From: Saprospiraceae bacterium
GTDB taxonomy: Bacteria > Bacteroidota > Bacteroidia > Chitinophagales > Saprospiraceae
Assembly (NCBI GenBank): GCA_013361075.1
Contig: JABWAJ010000001.1
Span: 1-37,941, forward strand
DNA: 37,941 nucleotides
Direction of reading: 5' to 3'
Shown: positions 2 to 37,806 of the stretch, in pieces
Numbering within the stretch: the first letter of the stretch is position 1
Layout of the letters: each line of letters opens with the position of its first letter
Notes under the pieces: model-generated
The model's input: the letters and a program-made list of their open reading frames with translations, nothing else
What the model was told of the DNA's origin: nothing
Databases searched by the model: none
Program-made: the position numbers and the translations under genes

Positions 2-250
2 GCGCAGACGCCTCCGGCGAGCGCGGGATCGAGCGGCGAGTGGGTCGGGTTCCTGCGCTCTCGTCCCGAGAACGGCGGGCTCGCGTACTCGATCGAGCAG
101 GGCTCGCGCGTGCTCGTCCGCATCGACGCCACGTCGAAGCGCTATCGGTGGACGGACTTCGTCGGGCTGCAGGTGCGCGTGCGCGGTCGCGTGAGTCAGT
201 CGGGCGCGGTGCCGACGATCGACGTCACGAAGCTCGAGATCCAGCGCTGA
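2..250 (+). CDS. 3' end of an unidentified gene carried on high-GC DNA (5' end lies outside the window)
   Basis: Frame 2 is open from the window edge to TGA 248-250 (...GEWVGFLRSRPENGGLAYSIEQGSRVLVRIDATSKRYRWTDFVGLQVRVRGRVSQSGAVPTIDVTKLEIQR*). Nearly every codon ends in G/C, the hallmark of the real frame in ~70% GC DNA. It is absent from the ORF track because it has no start codon in the window. No family recognised. Confidence 0.4.
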   Translation, partial: AQTPPASAGSSGEWVGFLRSRPENGGLAYSIEQGSRVLVRIDATSKRYRWTDFVGLQVRVRGRVSQSGAVPTIDVTKLEIQR

Positions 251-446
251 CGTTCGCGTCCTCGGGGCGCACCAGCGCGAGGACTTCGCGCGCGACCGTT
301 TCCGCGGCGTCGGGCAGTGCGAGGCCCAGAGCTCGCTCGCTCATCGTCGCGCGGCGCGCGTCGTCCGACAGCAATGCGTCGACGACACCAGCGAGATCGC
401 GCTTGTGCTTGACCGCGACGGCGCATCCCGCGCGGACGAAGAACTC
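225..446 (-). CDS. C-terminal fragment of a GT-B type glycosyltransferase (MurG / MGDG-synthase-like tail), high-GC origin
   Basis: Distal part of track ORF 225..866: ...EFFVRAGCAVAVKHKRDLAGVVDALLSDDARRATMSERALGLALPDAAETVAREVLALV... resembles the C-terminal tail of GT28-like enzymes (N-x-x-F-L-x-x-x-G-A-A ... L-L-x-D-x-x-x-R-x-x-M). Codons are G/C-ending. The stop at 225-227 overlaps the convergent + strand gene end by 26 nt. The upper boundary (~446) is where codon style changes, not a gene start. Confidence 0.4.
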   Translation of the reverse strand, partial: EFFVRAGCAVAVKHKRDLAGVVDALLSDDARRATMSERALGLALPDAAETVAREVLALVRPEDANVSAGSRAS

Positions 447-866
447 CTGATTGCGCGCTTCCTGGAGGCGTTCCATGTCGCGTTCATTGGCTTTGCGAAC
501 GACTTCCTGGGTAATGCTTTCTTCACTGGTTCGTTTTTTCTTCATTTGCATGCGCACCAGGTCTCCGCTCAGGCTGATCCGGCCCACATCGTAACCATTA
601 CCGGTATCTACAATGACCATATCACCGGTTGAGGCAGGCGACAAGTTGCGGAAAAATTGTTTCCGGGCGCCGTTTTTAAAGCTAACCTCTACAATTTCAT
701 ATCCATCTACATCGTAGATATCCATATCCGAGAGCCAGTCGAAGGTATTGAGGCGATTGCAGCCCCCGGTGGAACAACCGGTTGAGGCGCATCCGCCCTT
801 GCTATTGCATCCGGCAACTTTTCCGTCGCCGGTGCTTACTGAACATCCTAAACATCCCATTTTCAC
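447..866 (-). pseudogene. PSP1 (YaaT/RicT-like) domain protein, N-terminal ~140 codons only; the 3' half is replaced by foreign high-GC sequence
   Basis: Proximal part of track ORF 225..866: MKMGCLGCSVSTGDGKVAGCNSKGGCASTGCSTGGCNRLNTFDWLSDM...VEVSFKNGARKQFFRN...GDMVIVDTGNGYDVGRISLSGDLVRMQMKKK. This is the Cys/Gly-rich leader plus PSP1 core typically found just downstream of holB in Bacteroidota. The conserved C-terminal half of the family is missing. Confidence 0.6.
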
Positions 867-10507: not shown

Positions 10508-13300
10508 GTGTACGACCTATTTAAGCATAAATTTTTCAAAATATGGCTCCTTCTGCTCCCCGCAAGTAGCCCGCTCTTCCTGTTTGCTCTCGAAGCGCCC
10601 CGGGTCATCAATTTTTCCAAAGCGCAATACCAGGCACAAAACCAAAACTGGATGATTGCCCAGGACAACGACTGGCGCATGTATTTTGCCAATTCTGCCG
10701 GACTGATGCAGTTTGACGGCACCAAATGGAAAGTGCAACCCATCGCCGACCGACGTACACCGAGGGCCATTGTGTGCGACAAAAAAGGGCGCTTGTATTG
10801 GGGTGCTTTTGGGGCATTCGGGTATTCAGAAGGGATTGGTTCTCCGGAAAAAGAACATCAACTTTGGCGATTGCTGCGCGATACGGTAAGTGTGCAAAAA
10901 GCACAGCGCGAAGAAATCTGGAATATTTTGATACACAATGACTTTGTGTTGTTCCAGTCTTTTGCAATCATTTATAAATACTACCCGGAAACGAACGTAC
11001 TTGAAGACATTACACCACCGGGTAACATCATGTTTGTGCACGACCTGGGCGAAAAGCTGCTGGTGCAGGTCATTGGCAAAGGCATTTACGAACTCACCCC
11101 CCGCAATGAATTCATTTTTCAGGAAGGCACACAACAGCTGGGAACCGCCATTGTAAAAAGCATCCTTCCTGCCTCCGACGGCAGTTGCCTCATTGCCACA
11201 GAACACAACGGGGTATTCCGGTACGCATCCGGCTCCCTGAAAACCTGGAATGCCAACTTTGATGCCATTGCGCGCATCAACCAACTCAACAAAGGCATCC
11301 GGCTTGCCAATGGCAATTATGCATTCGGCACGATCCTCGACGGGGTCTTTATTCTGGATCCGAACGGCGCGCTCCTTTACCACCTCAATCGAAGCGAGGG
11401 GCTGCAAAACAATACAGTACTGGCTCTTTACGAAGACAACACCGGAAACCTCTGGCTGGGATTGGATAAGGGCATAGATTTGATCGAACTGAATTCCCCG
11501 GTGGTGTATTACACCGATAAAAAAGGCAAACCCGGGGCCGTTTACACCGCTGCCATTTTTGAAAATAATTTGTACATCGGAGCCAATCAGGGGGTGTTTT
11601 ACAAACCCTGGCCTTCTACCGGAAAAGATTTTCAGTTGCTGGAAGGCACACAGGGGCAGGTTTGGGAGCTTCGCGTTCTGGACGGGCAATTGTTGTGCGG
11701 CCACAACGAAGGCACTTTTGCCATTGCCGGAAAAAAAGTGTCAAAAATATCTTCCGTCACTGGCGGCTGGGTCATGCAACTCCACCCTACCCAACCCGAC
11801 ATCCTGCTGCAAGGTACCTATACCGGGGTTATTGTGTTGCGCAAAAACAAGGCTGGACGGTGGCAATTCTCCCACCGCATCGAAGGATTCATTGAACCAG
11901 TGAAGCGTCTGTTGTTTGACTCGGAGGGGTACGTTTGGGTTGCCAATCCCTACAAAGGCTTGTATCGGCTGAAGTTGTCCGAAAATTTGCAGTCCTGGAC
12001 TGAAATCAGGCCATACGGCACAAAAGATGGACTGCCTTCCGAATTTAAAGCCGATATTTTTCGGTTTAATGGTGCCCTGGTGACCCATTCGGCCGGAAAG
12101 CTGTTTTTTTATGACAAAAACAACCAGTGGAAGCCATTTGAACAACTCCAGGGGACGGGCAGGGCTTTTACGTTTGCTCCCGGCGAATGGTTTGAAGTGT
12201 ATGCAGATGAGGTGAAATGGGTGCGGGCCAAAAGCACTCATACCCTTCCCCTGTCGCTGATTCCGGATTTTGAAAGCATTTTGTCGCTGGGTGACGGCAG
12301 CTATCTTTTTTGTCTGGAAGACGGGTATGCACTGATTGACGGCAACCACGCCCGCCATAATTTCTCGCAAACACTCCCCCCGCCAATGATTCTGGAGGTA
12401 GGAATCGGGGGCCCCGACCCTCTGAACATTTATCTTGGCAAACAAACCGGAGAATGGGTTTTATTGCCCACTCAAAATGATTTTATTTTTCAGTTCACTT
12501 TACCCATATACACCAAAGCGCCTGATTTTCAATACCAATTAGAAGGTTTTTCTTCAGAATGGTCGCCATGGGGCAAAGTATCCGTCAAAGAATTCACCAA
12601 CCTGCCGCCGGGGAAATATACCTTCCGCGTCCGGTCCGGTTCTTCCGATGAGGTACTCAATTTTCCTTTTTTGATTCGTCCGCATTGGTATCAAACGGCT
12701 TGGGCGGCCTTGCTGTTTCTTTTGCTGGTGTGGATGCTGATTGCCATCGGCCTGGTTTGGCACCGCCAGCGGCTCGGAAAACAGCGCCGCCGCCTGTTGC
12801 TGGAAAAAGAACGCGAACTGGAACAACAGCGCATCCGGGCTGCCAATGAAAAACTGCAATCTGATGTCATTGGAAAAAGTCAGGAACTGGCCAATTCTAC
12901 CATGAACCTTGTGCGCAAAAACGAAACCCTGATGGAAATCAAAGAAGAGTTGGCACAAGCCAAATCCAATGCAGGCGGTACTTTTCCAACAGCCAATTAC
13001 CGCAAATTGCAACGCCTGATCGAGGACAACCTTTCTTCTGAGCAGGACTGGAAGCTGTTTGAAACCAATTTTAATCAGGTGCATGAGGCTTTTTTCAACC
13101 GCCTGAAAGCGCAATTCCCGGAACTTACCCCCGGTGATCTGAAACTCGCCGCTTATCTGAAAATGAATTTATCCTCGAAAGAAATCGCTCCCCTCCTCAA
13201 TATTTCCGTTCGTGGTGTAGAAAACAAACGCTACCGGCTGCGTCAGAAAGTGCATCTAGACAATGACGCCAACCTTACCGAGTTTATGATCCATTTCTGA
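10508..13300 (+). CDS. one-component sensor-regulator: two-component-regulator beta-propeller repeats + Y_Y_Y domain + TM + LuxR-type HTH
   Basis: 930 aa, GTG start per the track. Propeller-blade motifs (GLMQFDGTKW, NGVFRY, DGVFILD, NTVLALYEDNTGNLWLGLDKGI, QGVFYKP). Y_Y_Y region FQYQLEGFSSEWSPWGKVSVKEFTNLPPGKYTFRVR. TM helix AALLFLLLVWMLIAIGLVW. C-terminal HTH LTPGDLKLAAYLKMNLSSKEIAPLLNISVRGVENKRYRLRQKV. Confidence 0.8.
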   Translation: MYDLFKHKFFKIWLLLLPASSPLFLFALEAPRVINFSKAQYQAQNQNWMIAQDNDWRMYFANSAGLMQFDGTKWKVQPIADRRTPRAIVCDKKGRLYWGAFGAFGYSEGIGSPEKEHQLWRLLRDTVSVQKAQREEIWNILIHNDFVLFQSFAIIYKYYPETNVLEDITPPGNIMFVHDLGEKLLVQVIGKGIYELTPRNEFIFQEGTQQLGTAIVKSILPASDGSCLIATEHNGVFRYASGSLKTWNANFDAIARINQLNKGIRLANGNYAFGTILDGVFILDPNGALLYHLNRSEGLQNNTVLALYEDNTGNLWLGLDKGIDLIELNSPVVYYTDKKGKPGAVYTAAIFENNLYIGANQGVFYKPWPSTGKDFQLLEGTQGQVWELRVLDGQLLCGHNEGTFAIAGKKVSKISSVTGGWVMQLHPTQPDILLQGTYTGVIVLRKNKAGRWQFSHRIEGFIEPVKRLLFDSEGYVWVANPYKGLYRLKLSENLQSWTEIRPYGTKDGLPSEFKADIFRFNGALVTHSAGKLFFYDKNNQWKPFEQLQGTGRAFTFAPGEWFEVYADEVKWVRAKSTHTLPLSLIPDFESILSLGDGSYLFCLEDGYALIDGNHARHNFSQTLPPPMILEVGIGGPDPLNIYLGKQTGEWVLLPTQNDFIFQFTLPIYTKAPDFQYQLEGFSSEWSPWGKVSVKEFTNLPPGKYTFRVRSGSSDEVLNFPFLIRPHWYQTAWAALLFLLLVWMLIAIGLVWHRQRLGKQRRRLLLEKERELEQQRIRAANEKLQSDVIGKSQELANSTMNLVRKNETLMEIKEELAQAKSNAGGTFPTANYRKLQRLIEDNLSSEQDWKLFETNFNQVHEAFFNRLKAQFPELTPGDLKLAAYLKMNLSSKEIAPLLNISVRGVENKRYRLRQKVHLDNDANLTEFMIHF

Positions 13301-13551: not shown

Positions 13552-13947
13552 ATGGCAACTGCATTCATCTTTCTGGTTGTGGCTTTGGTCGCAATCGGGC
13601 TGGTAACAACAGTGGAGGGAAATGCAAAGCGCCGGTCTGAATACTATGAGGAAAGAAACAAAGAAGTTATTCCGTTTGATAAACGCAATTTGTTGCCTCG
13701 TGGCTACCAAGGCCGGGTTTTGGCTATGCCTGCCCACACTCAAGGAGTTTACGACGACGCGTATGCTGCCGCATACACCCAAGACAGAAGAAACAGGAAG
13801 TCAAATAGATCTGGCAACCAAAGACTTACAGCAACATTGCTGTTTTCAATGCTCATTATCATCACTCTGGCTTATGCTGCCATGCGCAAAAAAGAGCACA
13901 CAGCATCGAGCCCATTCAACAAGGCGGAGCTTTACCTTAAATATTGA
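13552..13947 (+). CDS. hypothetical small membrane protein (2 predicted TM helices)
   Basis: 131 aa. N-terminal TM AFIFLVVALVAIGLVTTV, a charged middle, and a second TM LTATLLFSMLIIITLAYAAM. Followed by a good terminator. Preferred over the overlapping 13622..13963 ORF. No family recognised. Confidence 0.45.
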   Translation: MATAFIFLVVALVAIGLVTTVEGNAKRRSEYYEERNKEVIPFDKRNLLPRGYQGRVLAMPAHTQGVYDDAYAAAYTQDRRNRKSNRSGNQRLTATLLFSMLIIITLAYAAMRKKEHTASSPFNKAELYLKY

Positions 13948-14282: not shown

Positions 14283-15653
14283 GTGGCCATGACAGCATCC
14301 AAGTATGTTTCAAGGCATCTCCCGCAAATTCCTAAGAAGGGGAAAAAAGAGATTCCTGCCTATCGGCTTCGTTTGGAAACGTACCTCAAAAACGAACTTA
14401 CGAAGCTCAAAAAACTGCACGTTGGGTCGCCCGACGATGCCCATACCTTTTTATTGCTGGACCGCAAGATCGCAGATAAACCTGTACGGGCCTTTTTTGC
14501 AGGTGAAATATTCGCGTTTATCCGGCGATCTGCCCAACAGGAAGGTCTGTTGCTGCATACGGAAGACTCCCATCTCTTCAGGCAGGTGATTCCTTTCGTA
14601 ACCGAAGTTGTCATTTCCATCCAGTATTTTCACAACCAGATACTGGACAGCAAAGCGGGGGTTACTTGCCGCAATAAAAAACAAATAGATCAAAACCTGC
14701 TTTCAGCTAACCTCCTCAAAGAATACCTCTACGAATACATCGAACAGGAAACTGCGCCGGAACACGCGGGGATCATCACCCGGTACGTACGTCGCATTTT
14801 TAAATATGTGGACGTCGGTCAGCAAACCGAAAAAAAATGGAATACTTACGAAAGCTTCGAACAGGGTTCTTACAAAAACAGGCAATTTCATCCGGAAATT
14901 GAAGCTTTTGCAAACCCGGAACGGGTGGCTCCCCTGCTGGAAACCCTGCGCAGGTTCTACCCCGAGCGCGGCGACTATGCAGATGCTTACCTGCAGCGCA
15001 TTGCACTCACTTCGGCAGCTTTGTTCGTACTTAATGCCGAAATGATCCTGGAATTGAGCGGATATACAGGCAACGCCCGGCAACCCATACTGGAGTTTGC
15101 CTGGTTTTATGGCATGATGCAACAAGTCATCAACGACAATGCCGATGTGGTGCCTTCCCGGTTCAACCACGAAACAACTGAAAAAACTGCCAGTGACGCC
15201 TTCAGCGATGCCCGCAACCACAATGTAACGCTGCCTTTGTTCCTGCATCTGGAAAACATGCGCCATGTACCGGAAAACTATGAACCTGACCTGGTTAAAT
15301 CCATCCTGCAACGCCCTTTCCATGTAACGCTGACCAACCGCGAAGAAGAACGGATGTTTCTGGAATTGAGGACTTCCGGTGCCCTTTACCTGTCGATTGA
15401 TATTGGCAAATATTTCGCAGCCATGGCGCAAAATTGTTTAACCGATGCTGCTTTGTCCGATTGTCAAAGCCTCTTGTCGCTGTGCGAAGTAGCAGACTGG
15501 AACCGATACATTTACGACTGTTACAACAAAAAGGATCCGCACAACAAACGACTGCGCAAACGCTATAAAGACAGCCCGCTTTACGCGGCCATGTCCGCAC
15601 TGACCGGGCATGCCAAATCAGCAGCCGTGCAGCATCAAATGGTCAATCCTTGA
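14283..15653 (+). CDS. trans-isoprenyl diphosphate (polyprenyl) synthase-fold protein with degenerate Asp-rich motifs; function unknown
   Basis: 456 aa (GTG 14283, or more likely ATG 14289). It is collinear with polyprenyl synthase landmarks. DKPVRAFFAGEIFAFI matches GKRxRPxL. EVVISIQYFHNQILDSK matches vELIHtaSLiHDDlxD. VGQQTE matches GQxxD. YLQRIALTSAALF matches YxxxIxxKTAxLf. FAWFYGMMQQVINDNADV matches fGxxlGxaFQIxDDxlD. KTASDAFSDARNHNVTLPLFL matches GKxxgxDlxxgKxTxPxl. FARM is H-N-Q-I-L-D (14631-14648) and SARM is N-D-N-A-D (15132-15146). Confidence 0.6.
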   Translation: MAMTASKYVSRHLPQIPKKGKKEIPAYRLRLETYLKNELTKLKKLHVGSPDDAHTFLLLDRKIADKPVRAFFAGEIFAFIRRSAQQEGLLLHTEDSHLFRQVIPFVTEVVISIQYFHNQILDSKAGVTCRNKKQIDQNLLSANLLKEYLYEYIEQETAPEHAGIITRYVRRIFKYVDVGQQTEKKWNTYESFEQGSYKNRQFHPEIEAFANPERVAPLLETLRRFYPERGDYADAYLQRIALTSAALFVLNAEMILELSGYTGNARQPILEFAWFYGMMQQVINDNADVVPSRFNHETTEKTASDAFSDARNHNVTLPLFLHLENMRHVPENYEPDLVKSILQRPFHVTLTNREEERMFLELRTSGALYLSIDIGKYFAAMAQNCLTDAALSDCQSLLSLCEVADWNRYIYDCYNKKDPHNKRLRKRYKDSPLYAAMSALTGHAKSAAVQHQMVNP

Positions 15654-15759
15654 TGCGAAGGATTGCTTGGGAAGCAGAAAACCTTGCCCCAAAAACCCTA
15701 AAGAACAGGGCGCAACAAAATGCTTGCTTGCCGCAATGAATTTCCTTGAGCACAACCGT

Positions 15760-15788
15760 TTGCAATCCAGCCAATTTCGCTAATTTTG
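15760..15788 (+). promoter_or_regulatory. candidate Bacteroidota sigma-A promoter (-33 TTG / -7 TAatTTTG) for the 1138-aa gene
   Basis: TTG at 15760-15762, an 18-nt spacer, then TAATTTTG at 15781-15788 (consensus TTG-N17-23-TAnnTTTG), 51 nt upstream of ATG 15839. Confidence 0.45.
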
Positions 15789-15838
15789 AGCACGGCAACA
15801 CGCCGGTAGCATTGGGAAACACAAAAAAATAGCGGATC

Positions 15839-18800
15839 ATGCCGGAAATTAAACTCAGGGAAATTGTATCCTTTGCGAACCAGGAGGAATTTCATGACCT
15901 GTTACTTGACCGCCTGCACGGGGCCATCCACCGGGTGCTCGACATTGATGAAGGCGACTACACCATGTTCATGGTAACGATTCCAAGGGGGCAGGACGTA
16001 GAAATCAACCCCTATTTGCAACAGGAACAGCTCATCTATGGGGGCGTGGACGCCCAGCGGCGACTGCTCGAAGCCGGCGTTGTCCTCAAAAACACGGCAG
16101 CCAGCTGGGATTACCTCAAATACGAAGAGTTCTACACCGAAGAGACTTACCTGACCCGCAATACATTCAATGAATTGGAAGCGGGGCAATATTCCATTGA
16201 AGACATTCCCGTGAAGTTTTCCGGCGACTTGTACGATTATTTTGCCGACCAGCGGGCTTCCCCGCCCGAAAACCCTCAGGCACCTGCCAACCTGAAAGAA
16301 GCGGAATACTGGATTCTGCGCGAACACTTTGATTTTAAGACGCGTTTGTCGGATAAATTCCTGTCGCTACCCCTGATTCAGTACCTCGAATTCGACGGGG
16401 TATTGCACTTTATTTACAAAAGAAAACATTCCAGAAAAGTCTTCCCGCAAGGGCTGAAAGACATTTCTGTGGTAAAAAAGCTGATCCGGGAATTCAACAA
16501 CCTCTACGACGAAATTATCCTCGATTGGGACATTGAATCCGGCAACTTCCAGAAGCGCGAAATTGTGGATAACATCCTGCTGTACAGCAATGACCCCGCC
16601 TTTCAGGAACGCAAAAACAGAAACCCGATCCTCCGCGAATTGCGCTACCTCGAATACTACCAGAACCACTTCCACTACTACAAACGCCGCGTAGAATATG
16701 GCCGGCAGGTGCCCGCTCTTTTCTATGAGCGCTATCTGCTGCAGGCCATCGTTCACATCCTCATTGACTCGTATGCACATAACGTGAGCGCGCATAGCTT
16801 AGTGGCACTCAATTGGTATTTCCAGTTGCGCTCCGAATATTACGGTCACGATGTGCACCAGCGCGATGCCATCTGGAGCGCCTACAAGTCGAAGTTATTG
16901 TCGGCAGTAGATACTGGTACTGGCTGGCGGCGCGATATGGCTGACTGGATCGAAGACCAGATTTTTGAAAACAGGGTAAGTGATGATGAGAACCTGCACG
17001 ATGTGGTGAGCCAACACCCGCTGGTACAGTACTCAGGGCGGTTGGACAAAGAAATCCATGTGTTGCTGAAGTTTATGCTCGAAAAGGGCGCTTTCTGGAG
17101 TGGGGTTACCCGTGACATCCATTTCGGCGGCAAAATCATTGGCCTGTACAGCCTGCTTTGGAACGATTTCATCAACAATCCACTCTACCTCGGCACCATT
17201 GCCCGCTCAGAAGGCATCGAACGCATCAACCTGAAAATTACCATTTTTGCCCCGGAAGGCCCAACTTCCTACACGCATGGCGCTTACCGCAATCCGAAGC
17301 ACGTTCAGGTGGAAGGCATTCTGGCCACGGTGGATCTGCGCCGCATCCGCAGCAAAGACGCTTCGGTAAACGGCAACGGAGAAGCAGAATACCTGACCAT
17401 GCCCGATGGAGAAAAATTGTTTTACGAAGACCACCCTTCGCTGAAAAACCGGAGCGTTTTTGTAGAACCGGGCCCCAACTACACCGCATTGAAAAAAGCG
17501 CTCAAAGCAGTGCGCATCTTTTTCCCGGGCGACCTCGTCGGCAAACACGCTTTCCTCACCATCCTGGAAAATGAGATTCGAAACGTCAAGCATTACAAGG
17601 GAGAGGCTTTGCGCCAAATGCACACAGAAGGACTGACGCTGAATATTTCTATTCAGGAAGCTTCGGTAAAGCCAGGTGCCCCAATCCATGAATTGTACAA
17701 AACCGGCATCTGGCTGGAAGCACCAACCGCGTTGAAAAAAGGACGCGACAGCGAAATGCCGCCCCTGATTACCCGAAAATTCAATGCCCTGCGCGGTGAT
17801 GTCATGAACTCAACGGAAGGTGAATTTTTGCCGCGACTCGGGGGCAACTACCAGGATAAAATCTGCGCCGCCATGTTGTTCAACAACCGGTTTGCCAGTG
17901 TGCAAAAAGGAGATACGGGTACCAGCCGAAGCAAAAATGAAGATACTGACCGCGACCGCGCGTATTACCCGTGGCTTATTCCGGCCAGTTGCCCGTTGCC
18001 TGACTACAGCGGCGTACACGACGATATGGAATTGAGCCTGCGGGAAGCGCGCAGAATTTACGGGTATTTCGACCGCCGCAAAGCTGCGGAAATCGAACCT
18101 ATGGCCAAAGCTTACCTTGAGGCATTTGAAGAAGCATATACCCAGGAAGTCGGCTACATCAAAAAATACTTTTACGTCTGGAAAGGAGAAAACCTTCACC
18201 GGCACCGGGAAACAACCGACCTGACCTGGGAAAACATCGGACGTTTTCGCTTTGTCTGCGTACCCGACAAATCGCCTAAAGCATTTGAAAGCGTTCGGCG
18301 GCAAGGTGTGGTCCGTATTCTGGAATCGAACGAAATCCGCCCGGAAGACAGCCTTACCCAAACCTACCACCGCTGGCTAAAAAAGTGGCTGGGCACTGAA
18401 AAACAGGTATTGCTGCTTCAAAAAGACAACAACATTGACGATGGTATGTTTGTCTTTAATCCATCCCCGGCAGAGGTGCTGCACTACTACAACATGCAGG
18501 AAACCATGGAATACCTGCAGGGCAACGGCCAGCCGGTGAAAACGACCCACCTGCGCTATGCCCACCGCGTGGATTCCGACACCGACCAGGAACGCATCAG
18601 CTACCGCAGCAATGGCATCCTGAAAACGTATTTTGTAGACCCCGCCTACCGCGCCGAAAAGGGGATTTCGCTGGGGCATATCCCCGCTGAACGCCAGGCA
18701 GAATTGTTCGAAACGCTGACGACCAAAGTATGCATGTTCGACAACCGCATCTGGCACCGCATCAAAGACCTGGGCCGTACCGATATTTACCGCGACATGA

Positions 18801-19255
18801 TGCACTTAGTTGTGCACAAAGAAGAAACACCGGGGCAGGCCGGCATGGAAGGCTTCCAGAACCTCTGGGAATACGAAAAGCAACACGCCATCAAGGAATG
18901 CCATTTTCTGGTGCTGCACCTGTCTTACATCGAACGTATCCTGGAAGAAAAATACGCTGGCCACCCCGCTTACACCGAAGGCGGCAACATTCAGCTTTTC
19001 CTTGAGCAGGAACTGCTGCCGGTGCTCACCGATCCGGAAACGGGCAAAATCCGCGACAATTTCATCCTCGTCATCACCACAGGCCGCGGCCGCATCAGCT
19101 GGTGGAAAGAAATTGAGCAGAAATACCCGCACTATACGTCGTTCATCATGTTCCGGACAGTGGAATCGCTGATTTCGAGTATTGAAAATGCAGTGGGGAT
19201 GAAGGATGATATTGAGTTGAAGTTTCGGTTGGTGAAGGTGTTGTTTGGGGCGTAG
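15839..19255 (+). CDS. 1138-aa uncharacterised protein with histidine-kinase/GHKL ATPase-like boxes and a receiver-like (pseudo-receiver) C-terminal domain
   Basis: Long uninterrupted ORF with native-looking codon usage. N-box-like ILENEIRNVKHY (aa 575-586, nt 17561-17596). F-box-like ITRKFNALRGD. G2-like RLGGNYQDKICAAML (aa 666-680, nt 17834-17878). Possible H-box DSYAHNVSAHSL (aa 310-321, nt 16766-16801). C-terminal alpha/beta pattern KVCMFDN (aa 963-969), FLVLHLS (His1027), ILVITTGRGR (aa 1076-1085). No Walker A and no recognisable nuclease motifs. Confidence 0.55.
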   Translation: MPEIKLREIVSFANQEEFHDLLLDRLHGAIHRVLDIDEGDYTMFMVTIPRGQDVEINPYLQQEQLIYGGVDAQRRLLEAGVVLKNTAASWDYLKYEEFYTEETYLTRNTFNELEAGQYSIEDIPVKFSGDLYDYFADQRASPPENPQAPANLKEAEYWILREHFDFKTRLSDKFLSLPLIQYLEFDGVLHFIYKRKHSRKVFPQGLKDISVVKKLIREFNNLYDEIILDWDIESGNFQKREIVDNILLYSNDPAFQERKNRNPILRELRYLEYYQNHFHYYKRRVEYGRQVPALFYERYLLQAIVHILIDSYAHNVSAHSLVALNWYFQLRSEYYGHDVHQRDAIWSAYKSKLLSAVDTGTGWRRDMADWIEDQIFENRVSDDENLHDVVSQHPLVQYSGRLDKEIHVLLKFMLEKGAFWSGVTRDIHFGGKIIGLYSLLWNDFINNPLYLGTIARSEGIERINLKITIFAPEGPTSYTHGAYRNPKHVQVEGILATVDLRRIRSKDASVNGNGEAEYLTMPDGEKLFYEDHPSLKNRSVFVEPGPNYTALKKALKAVRIFFPGDLVGKHAFLTILENEIRNVKHYKGEALRQMHTEGLTLNISIQEASVKPGAPIHELYKTGIWLEAPTALKKGRDSEMPPLITRKFNALRGDVMNSTEGEFLPRLGGNYQDKICAAMLFNNRFASVQKGDTGTSRSKNEDTDRDRAYYPWLIPASCPLPDYSGVHDDMELSLREARRIYGYFDRRKAAEIEPMAKAYLEAFEEAYTQEVGYIKKYFYVWKGENLHRHRETTDLTWENIGRFRFVCVPDKSPKAFESVRRQGVVRILESNEIRPEDSLTQTYHRWLKKWLGTEKQVLLLQKDNNIDDGMFVFNPSPAEVLHYYNMQETMEYLQGNGQPVKTTHLRYAHRVDSDTDQERISYRSNGILKTYFVDPAYRAEKGISLGHIPAERQAELFETLTTKVCMFDNRIWHRIKDLGRTDIYRDMMHLVVHKEETPGQAGMEGFQNLWEYEKQHAIKECHFLVLHLSYIERILEEKYAGHPAYTEGGNIQLFLEQELLPVLTDPETGKIRDNFILVITTGRGRISWWKEIEQKYPHYTSFIMFRTVESLISSIENAVGMKDDIELKFRLVKVLFGA

Positions 19256-19258
19256 TGT

Positions 19259-19275
19259 AAGGGTGGAACCCTTTT
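19259..19275 (+). terminator. weak terminator-like hairpin right after the 1138-aa gene
   Basis: AAGGGT-GGA-ACCCTT (6-bp stem, 3-nt loop), with only a short T run after it. Confidence 0.25.
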
Positions 19276-19312
19276 AATAGTAGACGCGAGGCCGGAGCCT
19301 CGGCGCCAGCGG
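19276..19312 (+). repeat. REP-like intergenic element, copy A
   Basis: AATAGTAGACGCGAGGCCGGAGCCTCGGCGCCAGCGG aligns with copies at 20365-20400 and 21647-21683. Core hairpin GAGGC-CGGA-GCCTC. Confidence 0.65.
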
Positions 19313-19361
19313 ACCTTTACGCGAGTGAGTTTTATCGCTTAATTCAGGTAAATCTTACAAA

Positions 19362-20168
19362 ATGGACAAAGAGCAATTGTTCGGCGATGCTTATCAGCCG
19401 GCAGAGATCGCGAAGCGGGTGCAAAACATGGGGGTAGCCAAAGCCCGGGCCGACGCGTTAACCCTATTGGTACTGGCCGTGCTGGCAGGTGCTTTCATTT
19501 CACTGGGCGCTCTTTTCTACACCTTTGTGGTCACCAACAGCAGCCTGGGATTCGGGTTGACGCGGTTGGCAGGCGGCCTGGCATTTTGCCTGGGATTGAT
19601 TCTGGTCGTGATTGGCGGCGCTAAGTTATTTACAGGCAATAACCTTCTTGCCATGGCCTGGGCAGGCAAACTCATTTCTACAAAAGACGTGCTGCGCAAC
19701 TGGAGCCTGGTCTATTTTGGAAATGTCGCGGGTTGCCTCGGTACGGTGGCGCTGGTTTTGTGGGCTGACATAGGCAGCATGGCCGGTGGTGCTGTTGGGG
19801 AAACCCTGCTGCAAATTGCGCAGACCAAAGCAGGGCTTTCCTTCGAAGCAGCCTTTACCAGGGGGATTTTGTGCAATACGCTGGTATGTCTGGCCGTCTG
19901 GCTTGCCATGGGAGGACACAGCGTAACCGATAAAATTCTTGCCATCCTTTTTCCGATTACCGGCTTCGTCACCATGGGGTTTGAACACTCCATTGCCAAC
20001 TGGTTTTTTCTGCCCATCGGGTTAGCCATGCAAACGCCTGATGCCACGATGCTGCCCGGCCTGGTCAACAACCTTATTGCCGTGAGTCTGGGCAATATTG
20101 TGGGGGGCACTTTATTGGTAGCAGGGGTGTATTGGGCTGCTTACCTCAGGGGAGGCATGCCGGAGTAA
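19362..20168 (+). CDS. formate/nitrite transporter (FNT) family channel
   Basis: 268 aa, 6 TM. LILVVIGGAKLFTGNN and GFEHSIANWFF signatures of the FocA/NirC family. Confidence 0.85.
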   Translation: MDKEQLFGDAYQPAEIAKRVQNMGVAKARADALTLLVLAVLAGAFISLGALFYTFVVTNSSLGFGLTRLAGGLAFCLGLILVVIGGAKLFTGNNLLAMAWAGKLISTKDVLRNWSLVYFGNVAGCLGTVALVLWADIGSMAGGAVGETLLQIAQTKAGLSFEAAFTRGILCNTLVCLAVWLAMGGHSVTDKILAILFPITGFVTMGFEHSIANWFFLPIGLAMQTPDATMLPGLVNNLIAVSLGNIVGGTLLVAGVYWAAYLRGGMPE

Positions 20169-21770: not shown

Positions 21771-22688
21771 ATGGGTAAAAAGAAAAATGGAAAAACAGAA
21801 TTTGTAAAGTGGTTTGGACCTGTTCTTGATGCATTGAGAGACTTAGGAGGTTCAGCTAAGCCGAGGGAAATTACTCAACGAATAGGTCTTCATTTAAATA
21901 TCCCAGATGAAATTTTGAATGAGCGGTATGAGAAATCAGGAGTTCTAAAATTTCAAAACCAAGTGGCCTGGGCAAGACAATATTTAGTTTGGGAGGAATT
22001 ACTTGAATCTTCAAAGCATGGTATTTGGACATTAACAAATAAAGGCTGGCAGACCAACCTTAGTGAAAACCAGGCACATGAAATTTTTATAAAATGGGTG
22101 AAAATTTTTCAAGAATTAAGAGAAAAAAAGAATATTGGGAGTGTTGAAACGGAAGCCCAAAAAATTATTCAGACACAAGAACAAACAGAACCTGAAAATA
22201 CACAGGTAAGTATTAGACCTACTTTAATTGACGTTTTACAGACAGTATCAGCAACAGGCTTTGAATATTTATGTGGTAGGCTTTTGAGAGAGTATGATTT
22301 TGAGAATGTTGAAATAACACAGCGCTCACATGACGGAGGGATTGATGGATATGCAACACTTAAAATAAATCCATTTGTAAGTCTTAGCGTTTTTTTTCAA
22401 TGTAAACGTTATAAAGGAACAGTTCCGACAGAAAAAGTTCAAGCTTTTATTGGTGTTATGGAGACGAATAAACGAAGCGTTGAAAAAGGGCTTTTGATAA
22501 CTACAGGCACATTTGCGAAAGCTGCTTATGAAATAGAAAAGTCGAACATAAAATTGGAACTAATTGATGGAGAAAAGCTTGTTGAAATGTTCGAAAAAGT
22601 TGAACTCGGCGTGAATCCCAAAGTAATTTATGAACCAGATTTAACCTTTTTTGAACAATACCGAGATAAATCAAAGAAAGAGGGCTAA
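21771..22688 (+). CDS. mrr: Mrr-type restriction endonuclease (Mrr_N winged-helix + Mrr_cat PD-(D/E)xK domain)
   Basis: 305 aa. N-terminal FVKWFGPVLDALRDLGGSAKPREITQRIG...FQNQVAWARQYLVWEELLESSKHGIWTLTNKG (Mrr_N). C-terminal FEYLCGRLLREYDFENVEITQRSHDGGIDGYA...FFQCKRYKGTVPTEKVQAFIG...GLLITTGTFAKAA (D...D-x-x-QCK core). Markedly lower GC than its neighbours. Confidence 0.85.
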   Translation: MGKKKNGKTEFVKWFGPVLDALRDLGGSAKPREITQRIGLHLNIPDEILNERYEKSGVLKFQNQVAWARQYLVWEELLESSKHGIWTLTNKGWQTNLSENQAHEIFIKWVKIFQELREKKNIGSVETEAQKIIQTQEQTEPENTQVSIRPTLIDVLQTVSATGFEYLCGRLLREYDFENVEITQRSHDGGIDGYATLKINPFVSLSVFFQCKRYKGTVPTEKVQAFIGVMETNKRSVEKGLLITTGTFAKAAYEIEKSNIKLELIDGEKLVEMFEKVELGVNPKVIYEPDLTFFEQYRDKSKKEG

Positions 22689-22697
22689 GATTTGGAG

Positions 22698-23183
22698 TTA
22701 TTCTCCTGCCAAAAGAAGCACCTCCTTTCTCAAAGCCTCACTCATCCAAAACCCTGCAAGTTTTTCAAGGTCGGTAAGAATGGAAGCAATTTCAGGAATC
22801 AATCCTTCTGATTTCGTTTTTAACAAAACTCCAAGCACCCCAATTGTCTTGAGTCCCATAGAATTCGCGATTTTCCAACCACGCCGTTCGTCAATGAGAA
22901 TAAAGTCGGCTTTCATTTCCATTGCCAACACGATGGCTTCACTTTCTCCCGGATCCAGTTGTTGAGATAACTCAGATACGGCAATTATATCTTCAGCAGA
23001 TTTTACTGTTATCCAAGCCTGATTGTTAATTGGTGAAATATCATAACCAAATTCGGCGAGTTTCGATAGTTCGTTAAGAACAGCGCCTGGCAAAATAATG
23101 TTACCAAAGAGTTTTTGCAGCAAATCTAATTTGCCAATAACGAACAAACTGGAAACGGGGGAAGCATCACTTACAACAACCAT
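22698..23183 (-). CDS. DUF3368 (PIN-like) toxin component of a type II TA pair
   Basis: 161 aa. VVSDASPVSSLFVIGKLDLLQKLFGNIILPGAV..EL, LDPGESEAIVLAMEMKADFILIDERRGWKIANSMGLKTIGVLGVLLKTKSEGLI match the DUF3368 consensus. Starts immediately after the antitoxin stop. Confidence 0.8.
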   Translation of the reverse strand: MVVVSDASPVSSLFVIGKLDLLQKLFGNIILPGAVLNELSKLAEFGYDISPINNQAWITVKSAEDIIAVSELSQQLDPGESEAIVLAMEMKADFILIDERRGWKIANSMGLKTIGVLGVLLKTKSEGLIPEIASILTDLEKLAGFWMSEALRKEVLLLAGE

Positions 23184-23423
23184 CTATGAAGCAAGATTTA
23201 AATGCTTAACATCCTCTCGCAGCTCCTCCACTCCATAATGAACAGCAATCTTCCGTTTGCCAAGCTCTTTTTGAAAAATCAATTGCGGAACCCCGGCCAA
23301 AGCAGCGGCTTGTCCGAGTGTCAATACCTCTTCTTTGAATAAGGCAATGGCAATCAGCATTTTGATTTCCTGCTCTGTCGTTTGTGCTTTCAGCAGGGTA
23401 GAATCATCGAGTTCAATTGTCAT
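23184..23423 (-). CDS. UPF0175 family antitoxin
   Basis: 79 aa. ...IKMLIAIALFKEEVLTLGQAAALAGVPQLIFQKELGKRKIAVHYGVEEL..D is typical of UPF0175. It lies upstream of, and is translationally abutted to, the PIN-like gene. Confidence 0.8.
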   Translation of the reverse strand: MTIELDDSTLLKAQTTEQEIKMLIAIALFKEEVLTLGQAAALAGVPQLIFQKELGKRKIAVHYGVEELREDVKHLNLAS

Positions 23424-34981: not shown

Positions 34982-35911
34982 ATGAGTACATTCAATTATT
35001 CTTTTTACGGAGAAGGCATCATGTATCCGCCTGACCTTGCCCCCAACATCAGTGCCATTCAGCAAGCTGGCTGGACCTCTGTCATCCTGAGCCTGTTTCA
35101 CATTGACGCCAACGGCAACATCATTTACAACAACCCGATGATCATCCAAAATGGTACGTATGTGGGCGATCCGGCCTGGCCCGGTCAGGTTGCGCAGTTG
35201 AAAGGTGGCTCTGTGAATACCATTCTTGCTTCCATAGGAGGTTGGGACGTTTCTGATTTCAGCAACCTTAAGACCATTTACAACAACAACAACAATTCTT
35301 TCCAGGGCACGCTGCTGCAAAGTAATTTCCAGGTTTTTCGTACCACCTTCCCTGACATCAGCATCATTGATATGGATTGCGAAAACACCTACGACCAGGA
35401 TTCTTTTGTCGCTTTCTGCGAAATGCTGATTGAAATCGGCTTTGGCATTACGTTTTGCCCGTATGATCTGGGTGAATTGGATTTCTGGACGGGCTCCTTA
35501 GCCGCCATCCAATCGAACTATCCTGGCGGGGTGAAATGGTGGAATTTACAGTGCTACGCCGGAGGCGGGGGCAATACTCAGGGGGTACTTCCTATTTGGC
35601 TGAATGCCATTAGAAAAGCCATTCCGGGCTTTAATACCGATGGCTATATCCAGGTCAGCGACTGGAGCCGGTTCTGGAACGTACCGGAATACGGCCCCCC
35701 ATATTGGGATGGCGATTGCCCGCAAGCTGTACAAAACTGGATTTCCCAATTTAATGGAGACGCATCGGTTGGTGGTGCGTTCATCTGGAACCTCGATCAG
35801 ATTCTGACTTACGAAAGTACAGAACAGCAGCATCCCGACCCGCAAAGTTGCGGCAATGTCGGGATGACAGATTATGTAAACGCGATGAAGGCCGCTTTGG
35901 GGAGTTCCTAA
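34982..35911 (+). CDS. glycoside hydrolase family 18-like (chitinase-fold) protein, with no signal peptide as annotated
   Basis: 309 aa. ILASIGGWDV (SxGGW motif, 35231-35245), ISIIDMDCE (DxDxE catalytic-motif equivalent, 35369-35383), GAFIWNLDQ (G-x-x-x-W-x-x-D-x C-terminal motif). Confidence 0.55.
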   Translation: MSTFNYSFYGEGIMYPPDLAPNISAIQQAGWTSVILSLFHIDANGNIIYNNPMIIQNGTYVGDPAWPGQVAQLKGGSVNTILASIGGWDVSDFSNLKTIYNNNNNSFQGTLLQSNFQVFRTTFPDISIIDMDCENTYDQDSFVAFCEMLIEIGFGITFCPYDLGELDFWTGSLAAIQSNYPGGVKWWNLQCYAGGGGNTQGVLPIWLNAIRKAIPGFNTDGYIQVSDWSRFWNVPEYGPPYWDGDCPQAVQNWISQFNGDASVGGAFIWNLDQILTYESTEQQHPDPQSCGNVGMTDYVNAMKAALGSS

Positions 35912-37806
35912 TCTTCTAAAAATCCCTCCGGCGAAGCCGATTGTATGCCCCCGATCGAAAAAGGAATATTGAATCCGATAAACGAATAGGGAGTATCCAG
36001 GCCAAAATTCCAGCCCCAGCCTGCGCTGAGCAAATCCCGGAAGGCGGTTATCATGATGCCGGAACCAAATTCCGGGGTACCATCAAGGTTAAAATCCGGG
36101 GAAGAAAAGCCCAGACCAGCGCCAAAAGCAATGAAATCGTTGTAGAATTTGCTTTTGCGGCTGCCCCATTTCAGGATAATGCCGTAGGTGGGGCTGAACT
36201 GGAATTTGTTTTGCAGCGTAATGGCCGGGGTGGAAGCCCGGTTGTAAGGGTTGGCCAGGATGACCGAACCGCTCATTTTGACGTGTACGGCGATGCGCGA
36301 CATGGTTACATAGCGGCGAAGGAGTACTTTTTGTTCAAAATTGCGGTTGCCCTCTTTTTTTCCGCGCTCCAATACGGCTTTGATCAGAATTTCATCGCCC
36401 GCCTTGCGTTCGCCGATGTATTTCAGTTCGATCAGCCCGCTGGCTGGTATGCTGCCTGCTGTGAGCCGCCGAACCTGATCTGAAAAGTCTTCATTGGCTA
36501 AGTAAGCTTTTTTGAATGGATCCAGAATGCTGCGGATCGTAGAAAACAGCCCTTTGATTTCAGCAATGTCCTGATTTACCGAAGTCACATAATTGTCATA
36601 AGCGCCGACCAGATTGTCCAGGTCTGCCGCACCTGGTGCTGTTCCTCCGTCAGCCAGGGCTACTCCTTTTTGCTCGTAAGTAGTCACAGCATCTTTAAAG
36701 CTGGAAAAGGAACGAACAATCAGTGCTGAAAAATCATCAAAAGTTTTGTCAATATTTTCGCTGCTGAGCAACGCTTGCGGAAAGTTGCCGGCAAGATTCT
36801 GGTAGGTTTCAGTGGCTAAGGTATAAAATTGATCCACTTTACTGAGACTCAGATCATTTTCAATCAGAATCCGGGCAGCAGGTTTGGTAGCACTTGACTG
36901 GTTCAGCTCAGCCAGCGTGGTGTTGAATACTTTTTTGAATTTTACTCTCGAAGTATCCGACGGAAACAAGTTCCCAACCCTGGATTTGATGAGTTGACGA
37001 AAAGAAAAAGTTGCATTGGAGGTATTAACCTGAAGGCTGTCATTGAGCATGCTGGTTTCGCTAAGTGCATTTTTCTCAGCCGCCGACAAAGGAGCGCTGA
37101 AACTCGAAATTTCACTGTAGGCATCTGGTGCGATGTCGTCAAAATTTTCCACATGCACCGGCCTGCCGCCACTTTTGTTTTTGATGAAGGCGCCCAGTCT
37201 GAAAAAAATCAGGAGCGAACTATCCGTTTGGCCGTCCACCTGGAGTTGTTCCATCAGGTTATTCCTCAAATCCTGAGCTTTTTCCTGCAAAAAATTAATG
37301 ACAATGATGATGTAAGGCAGGCCGGAGGTTGCCAGCTGGTTTGCTACAATTGGACTGTTCGAAAGTTCTTCATACAATTCATCATCGAGCGTATTTTCAA
37401 GTTCTTCAAGAAACTCGTCAGATTGAGTCGCCAATTCCTTGTAGTCCTGCATGGTAGGCGTACCATTCCCCGAAAATTTTTCGTTGATGAGACCGATGAT
37501 TTTGTTTTGATTCCGAAGCAGGGTATTGAATTCCTTCAATTTTTGCAGGCGACTATCGGATCCTGAAATTCCCTGAAACCGAAACATTTCGTCTTCCAGT
37601 GCAGCAAGATCAATTTTGATATGCACCATGCTGTTGATGTCTACTATAGCCGGCCCGGTTGAGGGCAGCGTATCCATGTATTTCCCGGAAGTGCTTTCCT
37701 CTATCAGCGTAAAAATGCTTGACGGGGTCAATTGTGCCCGACAGGGAGCGGCAGCGAGGAAGAAAAACAGGGCTACAACTGCGGTATAAAATGGCATGGA
37801 TCTCAT
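35908..37806 (-). CDS. hypothetical secreted protein (632 aa)
   Basis: Signal peptide MRSMPFYTAVVALFFFLAAAPCRAQ. A long helical or low-complexity middle and a Gly/aromatic-rich C-terminal ~90 aa (...FGAGLGFSSPDFNLDGTPEFGSGIMITAF...GWGWNFGLDTPYSFIGFNIPFSIGG...). No family recognised. Confidence 0.55.
   Translation of the reverse strand: MRSMPFYTAVVALFFFLAAAPCRAQLTPSSIFTLIEESTSGKYMDTLPSTGPAIVDINSMVHIKIDLAALEDEMFRFQGISGSDSRLQKLKEFNTLLRNQNKIIGLINEKFSGNGTPTMQDYKELATQSDEFLEELENTLDDELYEELSNSPIVANQLATSGLPYIIIVINFLQEKAQDLRNNLMEQLQVDGQTDSSLLIFFRLGAFIKNKSGGRPVHVENFDDIAPDAYSEISSFSAPLSAAEKNALSETSMLNDSLQVNTSNATFSFRQLIKSRVGNLFPSDTSRVKFKKVFNTTLAELNQSSATKPAARILIENDLSLSKVDQFYTLATETYQNLAGNFPQALLSSENIDKTFDDFSALIVRSFSSFKDAVTTYEQKGVALADGGTAPGAADLDNLVGAYDNYVTSVNQDIAEIKGLFSTIRSILDPFKKAYLANEDFSDQVRRLTAGSIPASGLIELKYIGERKAGDEILIKAVLERGKKEGNRNFEQKVLLRRYVTMSRIAVHVKMSGSVILANPYNRASTPAITLQNKFQFSPTYGIILKWGSRKSKFYNDFIAFGAGLGFSSPDFNLDGTPEFGSGIMITAFRDLLSAGWGWNFGLDTPYSFIGFNIPFSIGGIQSASPEGFLED

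Follow-up and report, generated by a model that had tools for sequence, protein, structure and literature searches.

Which kind of protein is encoded by the giant open reading frame at positions 15839 to 19255 of a 37,941-nucleotide stretch of Saprospiraceae DNA (contig JABWAJ010000001.1; the whole stretch is called the window below)? A preliminary description, made from the letters alone, had seen in its product of 1138 amino acids (aa) a self-contained orphan with GHKL-type ATP-binding boxes and a receiver-like C-terminus. After a comparative analysis, we lean with modest confidence towards a cytoplasmic and very divergent transducer of the hybrid sensor histidine kinase type. We hold with good confidence that the architecture is kinase-like; as to whether the giant phosphorylates the sigma-54 regulator encoded next to it in most relatives, belief and doubt are close to balanced, doubt slightly prevailing. 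The family is plausible as a new branch of two-component signalling. The segments of the giant on which the argument turns are the following.

15839 to 19255, plus strand: the giant open reading frame (ATG start, 1138 aa), member of an unannotated family, with hybrid-histidine-kinase-like architecture.
15839 to 16453, plus strand: N-terminal alpha/beta domain, aa 1-205 (DSSP assignment of the model, weak Foldseek matches to GAF/IclR domains, domain distribution).
16466 to 17107, plus strand: helical stalk, aa 210-423, containing in the model an 82-residue helix (278-359).
16766 to 16822, plus strand: H-box-like motif DSYAHNVSAHSLVALNWYF, aa 310-328, with D310, S311, H314, N315 and H319 invariant.
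17084 to 17212, plus strand: the family's most conserved block by alignment, KGAFWSG.TRD..FGG ... DFINNPLYLGTIA.SE, aa 416-458.
17456 to 18043, plus strand: putative Bergerat-type (CA-like) domain, aa 540-735, proposed from the order of secondary structures in the model; no G1 DxGxG.
17561 to 17596, plus strand: N-box-like motif ILENEIRNVKHY, aa 575-586, with R581, N582, K584 and H585 invariant.
17834 to 17878, plus strand: G2-like motif RLGGNYQDKICAAML, aa 666-680, with G668, G669, Q672, D673, K674 and C676 invariant.
18056 to 18703, plus strand: middle alpha/beta domain, aa 740-955, fold not assigned, with K776, W781, R802, R826, W846 and H909 invariant.
18716 to 19255, plus strand: C-terminal (beta-alpha)5 receiver-like domain, aa 960-1138 (DSSP of the model, alignment, path of the alignment with a receiver profile).

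The reading frame and all the motifs that had been quoted from it were recovered at the same residues, including IWLEAPT (aa 624-630), ITRKFNALRGD (aa 644-654) and, in the C-terminal domain, KVCMFDN (aa 963-969), FLVLHLS (aa 1023-1029), ILVITTGRG (aa 1076-1084) and FIMFRT (aa 1102-1107). The preliminary description was also right in finding neither transmembrane segments nor a P-loop: the maximum Kyte-Doolittle score of a 19-mer in the giant is 1.29, and the 1138-aa sequence has no P-loop. Conservation was measured in two alignments, one of 114 homologues (mean column identity 30%), to which the word invariant refers wherever it is used of the giant, and one of 30 much more remote relatives (18%). 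Apart from the stalk and Gly-rich loop residues listed above, the invariant positions are K416, G417, A418, W420, G422, R425, G431, N447, Y450, G452 and E458 in a conserved insert, P563, G568 and H570 together with the four N-box-like residues, and D968, R970, R974, E995, H1027, L1028, G1082, R1083, W1088, R1106 and E1109 in the C-terminal domain; E577 and N578 of the N-box-like motif are conserved in at least 90%. Most of the invariant residues are unchanged in the 30 distant relatives as well. Motif conservation, as judged from these alignments, is far above chance, and we therefore take the motifs for real, selected features of the family.

That family is large, and the giant is no orphan. 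A word-seeded search gave at least 315 homologues with E≤1e-3, the one at rank 120 still having E=3e-155 and full-length coverage, and an exhaustive profile search of 1.8 billion cluster representatives gave 789 proteins at E≤1e-3, 333 of them at E≤1e-30. Those of the 315 that bear a name are without exception labelled hypothetical, their sources being Saprospiraceae, Lewinella, Phaeodactylibacter or unclassified Bacteroidota; the 90% cluster of the window protein has 20 members, the named ones being "hypothetical protein [Saprospiraceae bacterium]". Full-length relatives are mostly from Saprospiraceae and Lewinellaceae; among hosts in culture are Lewinella cohaerens DSM 23179, which has an orthologue (NZ_KB903535.1; locus L025, 7971-11270), and Flavilitoribacter nigricans DSM 23189. 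The conserved core (aa ~280-1138) is also found in Ignavibacteriota, Aminicenantes, Bacteroidales, Eubacteriales and an Asgard archaeon; the middle domain (aa 740-955) is present whenever the core is, and the N-terminal domain (aa 1-205) is restricted to the Saprospiraceae subfamily. Searches of the giant in Pfam, NCBIfam and PADLOC gave no match, and phmmer against PDB sequences gave only a chance match to NuoF (E 0.1). A full-text search of the literature found no description of the family, its sole match (eLife 2020;9:e52696, PMC7159879) not dealing with it. This is thus a large unannotated family, beyond the reach of Pfam, NCBIfam and PDB-sequence profiles.

What fold would such a protein adopt? 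AlphaFold2, run on the 114-sequence alignment, gave a confident model of the giant (predicted local distance difference test score, pLDDT, 85; predicted TM-score, pTM, 0.81). It starts with an alpha/beta domain (aa 1-200) and continues with a helical region (aa 210-423), in which the long helix 278-359 bears both H314 and H319; in a sub-model restricted to aa 280-740 (pLDDT 85) this helix breaks at aa 314-318. A conserved alpha/beta insert (aa 431-563) comes next, and the family's most conserved block (aa 416-458), which has no counterpart in canonical kinases, sits between the stalk and the N-box-like helix. From aa 566 to 731 the model has the N-box-like helix 566-585, on which both N578 and N582 are placed, strands 599-608 and 619-626, helix 643-652, a GG loop with helix 669-682, and strands 713-719 and 726-731. 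About the N-box-like helix, this succession of elements agrees with that of a Bergerat fold; the invariant pair G668-G669 precedes helix 669-682, with the sequence GGxxQDK and not GxGxG. An alpha/beta domain to which no type could be assigned (aa 771-922) leads to the C-terminal (beta-alpha)5 unit (aa 964-1136), whose strands are, by DSSP, beta1 964-967, beta2 990-993, beta3 1023-1027, beta4 1076-1081 and beta5 1103-1107, with helices between them. In this unit D968 follows beta1, H1027 ends beta3, T1080 and T1081 end beta4 and R1106 ends beta5.

The models were compared with known and predicted structures by Foldseek. Against the PDB, the full model had no match below E 1e-3; the top one was WalK (E 2.4e-3), and LOV-HK, phytochromes, GAF/IclR ligand-binding domains, the CA domain of DesK and flavodoxin-like proteins, the latter as weak matches only, were further down. 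Against BFVD, which holds predicted structures of viral proteins, its top match was "Histidine kinase [Marseillevirus LCMAC102]" (E 3.1e-6, probability 0.99); two Feldmannia-virus entries, one bearing the name histidine kinase, came next, and then a kinase from a marine phage and GAF proteins. With the sub-model of aa 280-740, 13 of the top 20 PDB matches were histidine kinases or related entries (phytochromes): the best was the non-canonical kinase region of RetS, and LOV-HK, HprS, CusS, GacS, CheA-P4, a kinase-regulator complex and phytochrome B were among the others. Kinases thus ranked first in the three runs, once significantly, so that all three agree on a multi-domain kinase architecture. 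In this respect the preliminary description is supported: taken as a whole, the protein is predicted to fold much like a histidine kinase of several domains. The N-terminal domain gave weak matches to GAF/IclR ligand-binding domains (E 0.3-1.8), and is possibly a ligand-binding domain of this kind.

The systems found by Foldseek also allow the giant to be placed among known proteins. Like hybrid sensor histidine kinases (RetS/GacS, WalK, and the hybrid kinases of giant viruses), which are its top matches, it has the predicted order of a sensor, a long helix with a conserved His, an alpha/beta nucleotide-binding domain and a C-terminal (beta-alpha)5 unit. Unlike them, it has no detectable sequence or profile similarity to kinases and no G1 box; an insert of ~130 conserved residues separates its stalk from the N-box helix, an extra domain of 215 aa precedes the receiver-like one, and His and Arg stand in place of the acceptor Asp and the Lys of receivers. 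With CheA, whose P4 domain is among the fold matches of the sub-model, the giant shares a conserved His ~270 residues away from the (in the giant, putative) ATP-binding domain and an extra domain after that domain; it differs from CheA in having no Hpt four-helix bundle, no P5/CheW-like similarity was detected, and hhalign against CheA P4 was negative.

We then come to the question of what a kinase-like giant might act upon. Its neighbours were mapped by tblastn at 78 loci, taking one genome per species. In Saprospiraceae and Lewinellaceae the giant belongs to an operon, in which a polyprenyl-synthase-like gene (~430-480 aa) is followed by the giant, a ~300-aa gene, a ~255-aa gene and a sigma-54 activator made of a receiver (REC) and an AAA+ domain. 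The activator is encoded downstream in 54 of the 59 non-redundant loci having at least 5 kb of downstream sequence, and 47 of those 54 loci also have both the ~300-aa and the ~255-aa genes. Upstream, the synthase-like partner is present in 55 of 67 loci. The word self-contained therefore does not apply to the giant. The activator REC appears fully equipped for phosphorylation, since D57, K109 and T/S87 (CheY numbering) were each found in 61 of 61 unique sequences and the acidic pair is nearly as constant; an exact GAFTGA motif was found in 30 of 65 regulators. No canonical kinase was listed in the gene tables of six full-operon places (five distinct operons). An intact activator REC with no canonical kinase nearby is the strongest argument, albeit an indirect one, for the giant as the cognate phosphodonor. 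The arrangement recalls NtrB/NtrC, as a REC-Sigma54_activat regulator with intact DD, D, T/S and K residues lies in the same operon in these 54 of 59 loci; it differs in that the putative kinase is about three times the size of NtrB, that the ~300-aa and ~255-aa genes come before the regulator, and that the window copy has no regulator nearby.

Far from Saprospiraceae, an NtrC-like activator is again found downstream in two distant loci (L076 and L081), and reading frames sized like the ~300-aa and ~255-aa genes follow the giant in L076, L079 and L081, the similarity being one of size alone. For the ~300-aa and ~255-aa genes themselves, a relationship with domains of the giant, as paralogues, or with Hpt-like or REC-like proteins was looked for and not found; a REC match came from reading frames that also contained the regulator and was gone after cleaning. 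An identical sigma-54-type -24/-12 element, TGGTACATAATTTGCA, was observed in two loci only (L013, 5901-5916; L027, 10448-10463), at the extreme 3' end of the giant gene, right before the ~300-aa gene.

In the window, the giant is accompanied by the first gene of the operon.

14283 to 15653, plus strand: partner gene, encoding a 456-aa polyprenyl-synthase-like protein (weak PF00348/TIGR02748 matches, repeated across the family).

Downstream of the giant, the window encodes a formate/nitrite transporter, a GNAT acetyltransferase and a restriction enzyme of the Mrr type. All three downstream genes of the operon are missing from five loci, namely the window and four relatives that are 85-91% identical to it (L005, L008, L010 and L011). 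In two metagenome-assembled genomes, CALEYL01 and JBJXFD01, a window-type copy is found alongside a full operon (the pairs being L010 with L034 and L012 with L033). Because the downstream genes are missing at window-type loci and a full operon coexists with them in two genomes, we conclude that the window pair (synthase-like gene and giant) is a two-gene paralogue of a larger system. It might feed the same regulator as the full operon, or modulate its own paralogue.

A series of results speaks against reading the giant as a kinase, and has to be set against the above. HisKA, HATPase_c and Response_reg were absent from Pfam scans of the giant and of the 30 distant members, and hmmsearch with the family profile found nothing among PDB sequences. 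Eight sub-regions of the giant were compared by hhalign with self-built profiles, i.e. a DHp-CA profile made from EnvZ, PhoQ, CpxA, NtrB, PhoR and BaeS (six kinases of E. coli) and a 70-sequence REC profile, and with NarX, BtsS and CheA-P4 as single sequences. Probabilities were ≤2% for every region, with 0.4% against the histidine kinase profile and a non-significant ~1% for the C-terminal domain against REC. The positive control did work, the histidine kinase profile retrieving NarX, BtsS and CheA-P4 at 95-98%; no region is linked by sequence or profile to HisKA, HATPase_c or Response_reg. Neither global nor greedy hhalign recovered the N-box/G2 pairing, and greedy alignment placed H319, not H314, on the HisKA His. 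Because the profile tests are negative and the greedy alignment is discordant, the residue equivalences first proposed (N-box, G2, H314 as acceptor) are to be read as hypotheses. As for structure, the PDB matches are individually not significant; the highest target TM-scores (TMt, up to 0.43) of the full model were with GAF/IclR domains and not with kinase cores, and the sub-model matches are weak (all E≥0.2, TM≤0.31), the low TM-scores being attributed to the ~130-residue insert and to a different orientation of domains. The G1 Asp, which contacts adenine in all GHKL ATPases, is absent from the whole family. Finally, the window copy has no response regulator gene within 38 kb, and a search for the sigma-54 -24/-12 consensus in the window and 85 loci gave fewer matches than expected by chance, none of them at a conserved position.

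Could the resemblance to kinases and receivers then be a coincidence, the architecture being unrelated and the motifs convergent look-alikes? Every sequence or profile comparison was negative and the PDB fold matches are not significant, as such a view would have it. We nevertheless hold it for very improbable, given one significant fold match (E 3e-6), the first rank of kinases in three independent Foldseek runs, and the strict synteny with a phosphorylatable regulator.

More weight must be given to what is missing from the two candidate active sites. At the G1 position, described from the start as degenerate, the family consensus is VWLxxPT, with no conserved Asp or Gly; the giant has no DxGxG there, its only one (DTGTG, aa 358) being in a poorly conserved stretch far upstream. 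The GHKL boxes of the preliminary description are thus upheld in part: N-box-like and G2-like residues are conserved and the order of elements fits a Bergerat domain, but there is no profile match and no G1. The receiver-like domain is likewise atypical. An invariant His, H1027, kept from Bacteroidota to the Asgard archaeon, occupies the site of the acceptor Asp at the end of beta3. Among the other REC signature residues, D968-N969 stands instead of DD, T1080/T1081 is present, and R1106 stands instead of Lys (family-wide the consensus here reads R-P, against K-P in REC; the window protein has R-T), and four invariant arginines, R970, R974, R1083 and R1106, lie around H1027. The best local path to the REC profile, in an alignment which is not significant, is the beta3 region, with H1027 on D57 of CheY, and its extension puts D968 on D12 and T1081 on T87. 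Of the receiver claim, then, a predicted (beta-alpha)5 fold with landmark residues in place is retained, whereas a significant REC profile match is lacking. Pseudo-receivers are similar in their (beta-alpha)5 layout, here a predicted one, and in bearing conserved residues where beta1, beta3, beta4 and beta5 end; the invariant His within an Arg-rich pocket sets the giant apart, a signature that is not known from any receiver family described so far. A B12-binding-like nature of the C-terminal domain, which radical S-adenosylmethionine (SAM) genes near some relatives had brought to mind, was rejected, as hhalign against B12-binding domains was negative.

The loss of G1 and the His/Arg-substituted pocket keep alive a model in which a kinase fold works as a switch and transfers no phosphate. 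Such a pseudokinase would use its altered ATP pocket, its Arg-rich receiver-like pocket or both to bind a nucleotide or an anionic metabolite (an isoprenyl diphosphate, for instance), and would control the sigma-54 activator, or its own paralogue, by protein contact, as RetS does with GacS. That G1 is missing family-wide, that the acceptor Asp has become a His ringed by R970, R974, R1083 and R1106, that the non-canonical RetS region is the best PDB match of the core sub-model, and that the window paralogue has no regulator gene yet coexists with the full operon are all in keeping with it. Against it, the N-box-like Asn, the Lys/His pair and the two stalk His are invariant over great distances, which exceeds what a scaffold usually needs, and the partner regulator retains all its phosphorylation residues, meaning that some kinase must serve it. 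On the whole we consider a pure switch unlikely, while giving it a real share of our belief. About as unlikely, and a trifle more speculative, is the idea that the giant is the first example of a hitherto unrecognised class of two-component-type transducers that spans phyla, from Bacteroidota to Asgard archaea, in which enzyme-head inputs, a G1-less core and a His-bearing receiver would go with a different phosphoryl chemistry; if true, a His-to-His step or a donor other than ATP (a diphosphate metabolite) would operate upstream of a classical Asp-receiver sigma-54 activator.

To return to the transducer of the kinase type that we favour, its input would come from the partner gene. The 456-aa partner resembles trans-isoprenyl diphosphate synthases by weak, repeated PF00348/TIGR02748 matches, and departs from them in that PF00348 scores are below the Pfam gathering threshold and both Asp-rich motifs are altered, being replaced by invariant N-Q-x-x-D-x-K and N-D-x-x-D. 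From the sequences, this looks like a conserved variant rather than decay. In one protein (P0141, 1453 aa) the synthase-like protein is fused to the N-terminus of a full-length giant, which is Rosetta-stone evidence, at the level of sequence, that the two window genes work together. Outside Saprospiraceae, relatives share only the core, from the helical stalk to the C-terminus, and their N-termini differ. Heads fused to the core among the 30 distant relatives were SAM-methyltransferases (at least 6), radical SAM proteins with or without SPASM (3), HMGL-like (3) and B12-binding (1), and the CX3CX2C motifs of the radical-SAM heads are intact. Elsewhere, a separate gene stands upstream: a B12-radical SAM gene in a Bacteroidales and in an Asgard metagenome-assembled genome (L074 and L083), a radical SAM gene with BATS in Eubacteriales (L079), a clear methyltransferase in Aminicenantes (L075), and a gene with a weak methyltransferase match in Ignavibacteriaceae (L076). 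Stalk, core, middle domain and receiver-like domain, usually with the regulator, are thus the constant part of the system, and an enzyme-type module is its variable part, as expected for interchangeable inputs on a common transmitter.

The same heads might suggest that the core is itself part of an enzyme, as catalytic or activating partner of the heads in processing an imported or lipid-like molecule, with the sigma-54 activator as a mere regulator of the pathway. In every lineage the core has such a head, either fused to it or as a neighbour, with intact cysteine motifs in the radical-SAM ones, Liv-type ABC importers with their binding protein are encoded upstream of four distant loci, and the most conserved block (aa 416-458) is foreign to kinases. 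We find this improbable, since the whole protein matches histidine kinases and no enzyme class in its fold, and since the heads come from unrelated superfamilies, which interchangeable inputs explain better than one shared chemistry.

We can now put together how the favoured transducer might work. Its N-terminal domain, possibly GAF-like, would bind a ligand, and the synthase-like protein encoded upstream, with which it would act, might supply or report a small-molecule signal; in other phyla radical-SAM, SAM-methyltransferase or HMGL heads take the place of this partner. The long helical stalk, with the two invariant histidines H314 and H319, would be followed by an enlarged Bergerat-type nucleotide-binding domain, in which N582 and the G668/G669 loop would have been kept and the adenine-contacting G1 lost; if this domain does bind ATP, a stalk histidine could be autophosphorylated. 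The middle domain would come next, and then a receiver-derived C-terminus, with H1027 at the acceptor site in its Arg-rich pocket. In the ancestral operon, the output would be phosphotransfer to the neighbouring sigma-54 activator (REC-AAA+), which retains its Asp, Thr/Ser and Lys. The fold and the operon logic of two-component systems are already known. What appears new, to judge by the libraries and papers searched, is a divergence beyond existing profiles, the conserved insert, the extra middle domain, the missing G1, a receiver-like domain bearing a His, and enzyme heads as inputs. Few groups of bacterial signalling proteins are catalogued as well as two-component systems; even so, kinase censuses probably miss this family, which has hundreds of members in several phyla, is invisible to current profiles and ties enzyme-type input modules to a sigma-54 output. 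Were it active, the sequence space known for GHKL kinases and for receiver chemistry would widen; were it not, we would be dealing with a pseudokinase regulator of wide occurrence.

Another function comes to mind on looking further downstream in the operons. About 20 loci encode, after the activator, a leucine-rich repeat (LRR) protein of ~830-886 aa. In L007, the last gene of the operon (16918-19578) encodes LRR and a ThsB-like TIR domain, of immune type, and in L076 a distal gene (14446-16980) encodes HD-CE, TCAD9 and APH-type kinase domains, also of immune type. The operon could then be a conflict (immunity) sensor, detecting an invader or a stress cue and switching on LRR-TIR or HD/APH-kinase effectors; genomes with 2 or more paralogous copies, and flanking genes that vary among genomes, would agree with such a role. 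It is still a distinctly improbable one, given that PADLOC models match neither the giant, nor the synthase-like gene, nor the ~300-aa and ~255-aa genes, that an effector-like gene is missing from most loci and from the window, and that two of the loci read, L001 and L004, adjoin the housekeeping genes lpxD-lpxC/fabZ-lpxA.

A few other features of the window deserve mention. Scans around the giant locus for Rfam families, tRNAs, promoters and terminators gave nothing relevant. Just upstream of the synthase-like gene lies a possible additional member of the operon.

13552 to 13947, plus strand: small 131-aa open reading frame with a transmembrane helix at each end.

The middle of this protein is charged and rich in aromatic residues. 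Reading frames of the same architecture (80-132 aa) occupy the equivalent position in 16 of 62 loci; beyond close relatives they are alike in composition and not clearly homologous. Further upstream, on the plus strand, a 930-aa protein (10508-13300) has Reg_prop/Y_Y_Y beta-propeller sensor repeats and, at its C-terminus, a weak match to a LuxR/GerE-type helix-turn-helix (E 0.005, below the Pfam cut-off); a Pfam scan found no kinase or receiver domain in it. Possibly it represents a one-component counterpart of the hybrid two-component regulators of Bacteroidetes.

On the other side of the giant, the Mrr-type type IV restriction endonuclease (21771-22688, plus strand) adjoins a DUF3368 protein (22698-23183, minus strand) and a 79-aa reading frame (23184-23423, minus strand), which together may form a toxin-antitoxin module. 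GC falls to 0.37 around 21771-23423, against about 0.48 in other parts of the window, a drop suggestive of a small island of acquired DNA. Near the far end of the window, a 632-aa reading frame (35908-37806, minus strand) has no Pfam match. The first 1000 positions have a GC of 0.59, well above the window average; Rfam and tRNA scans detected no RNA gene in them, and the reading frame at 225-866 (minus strand) gave a weak, sub-threshold match to the STALD (Sir2/TIR-associated SLOG) family.

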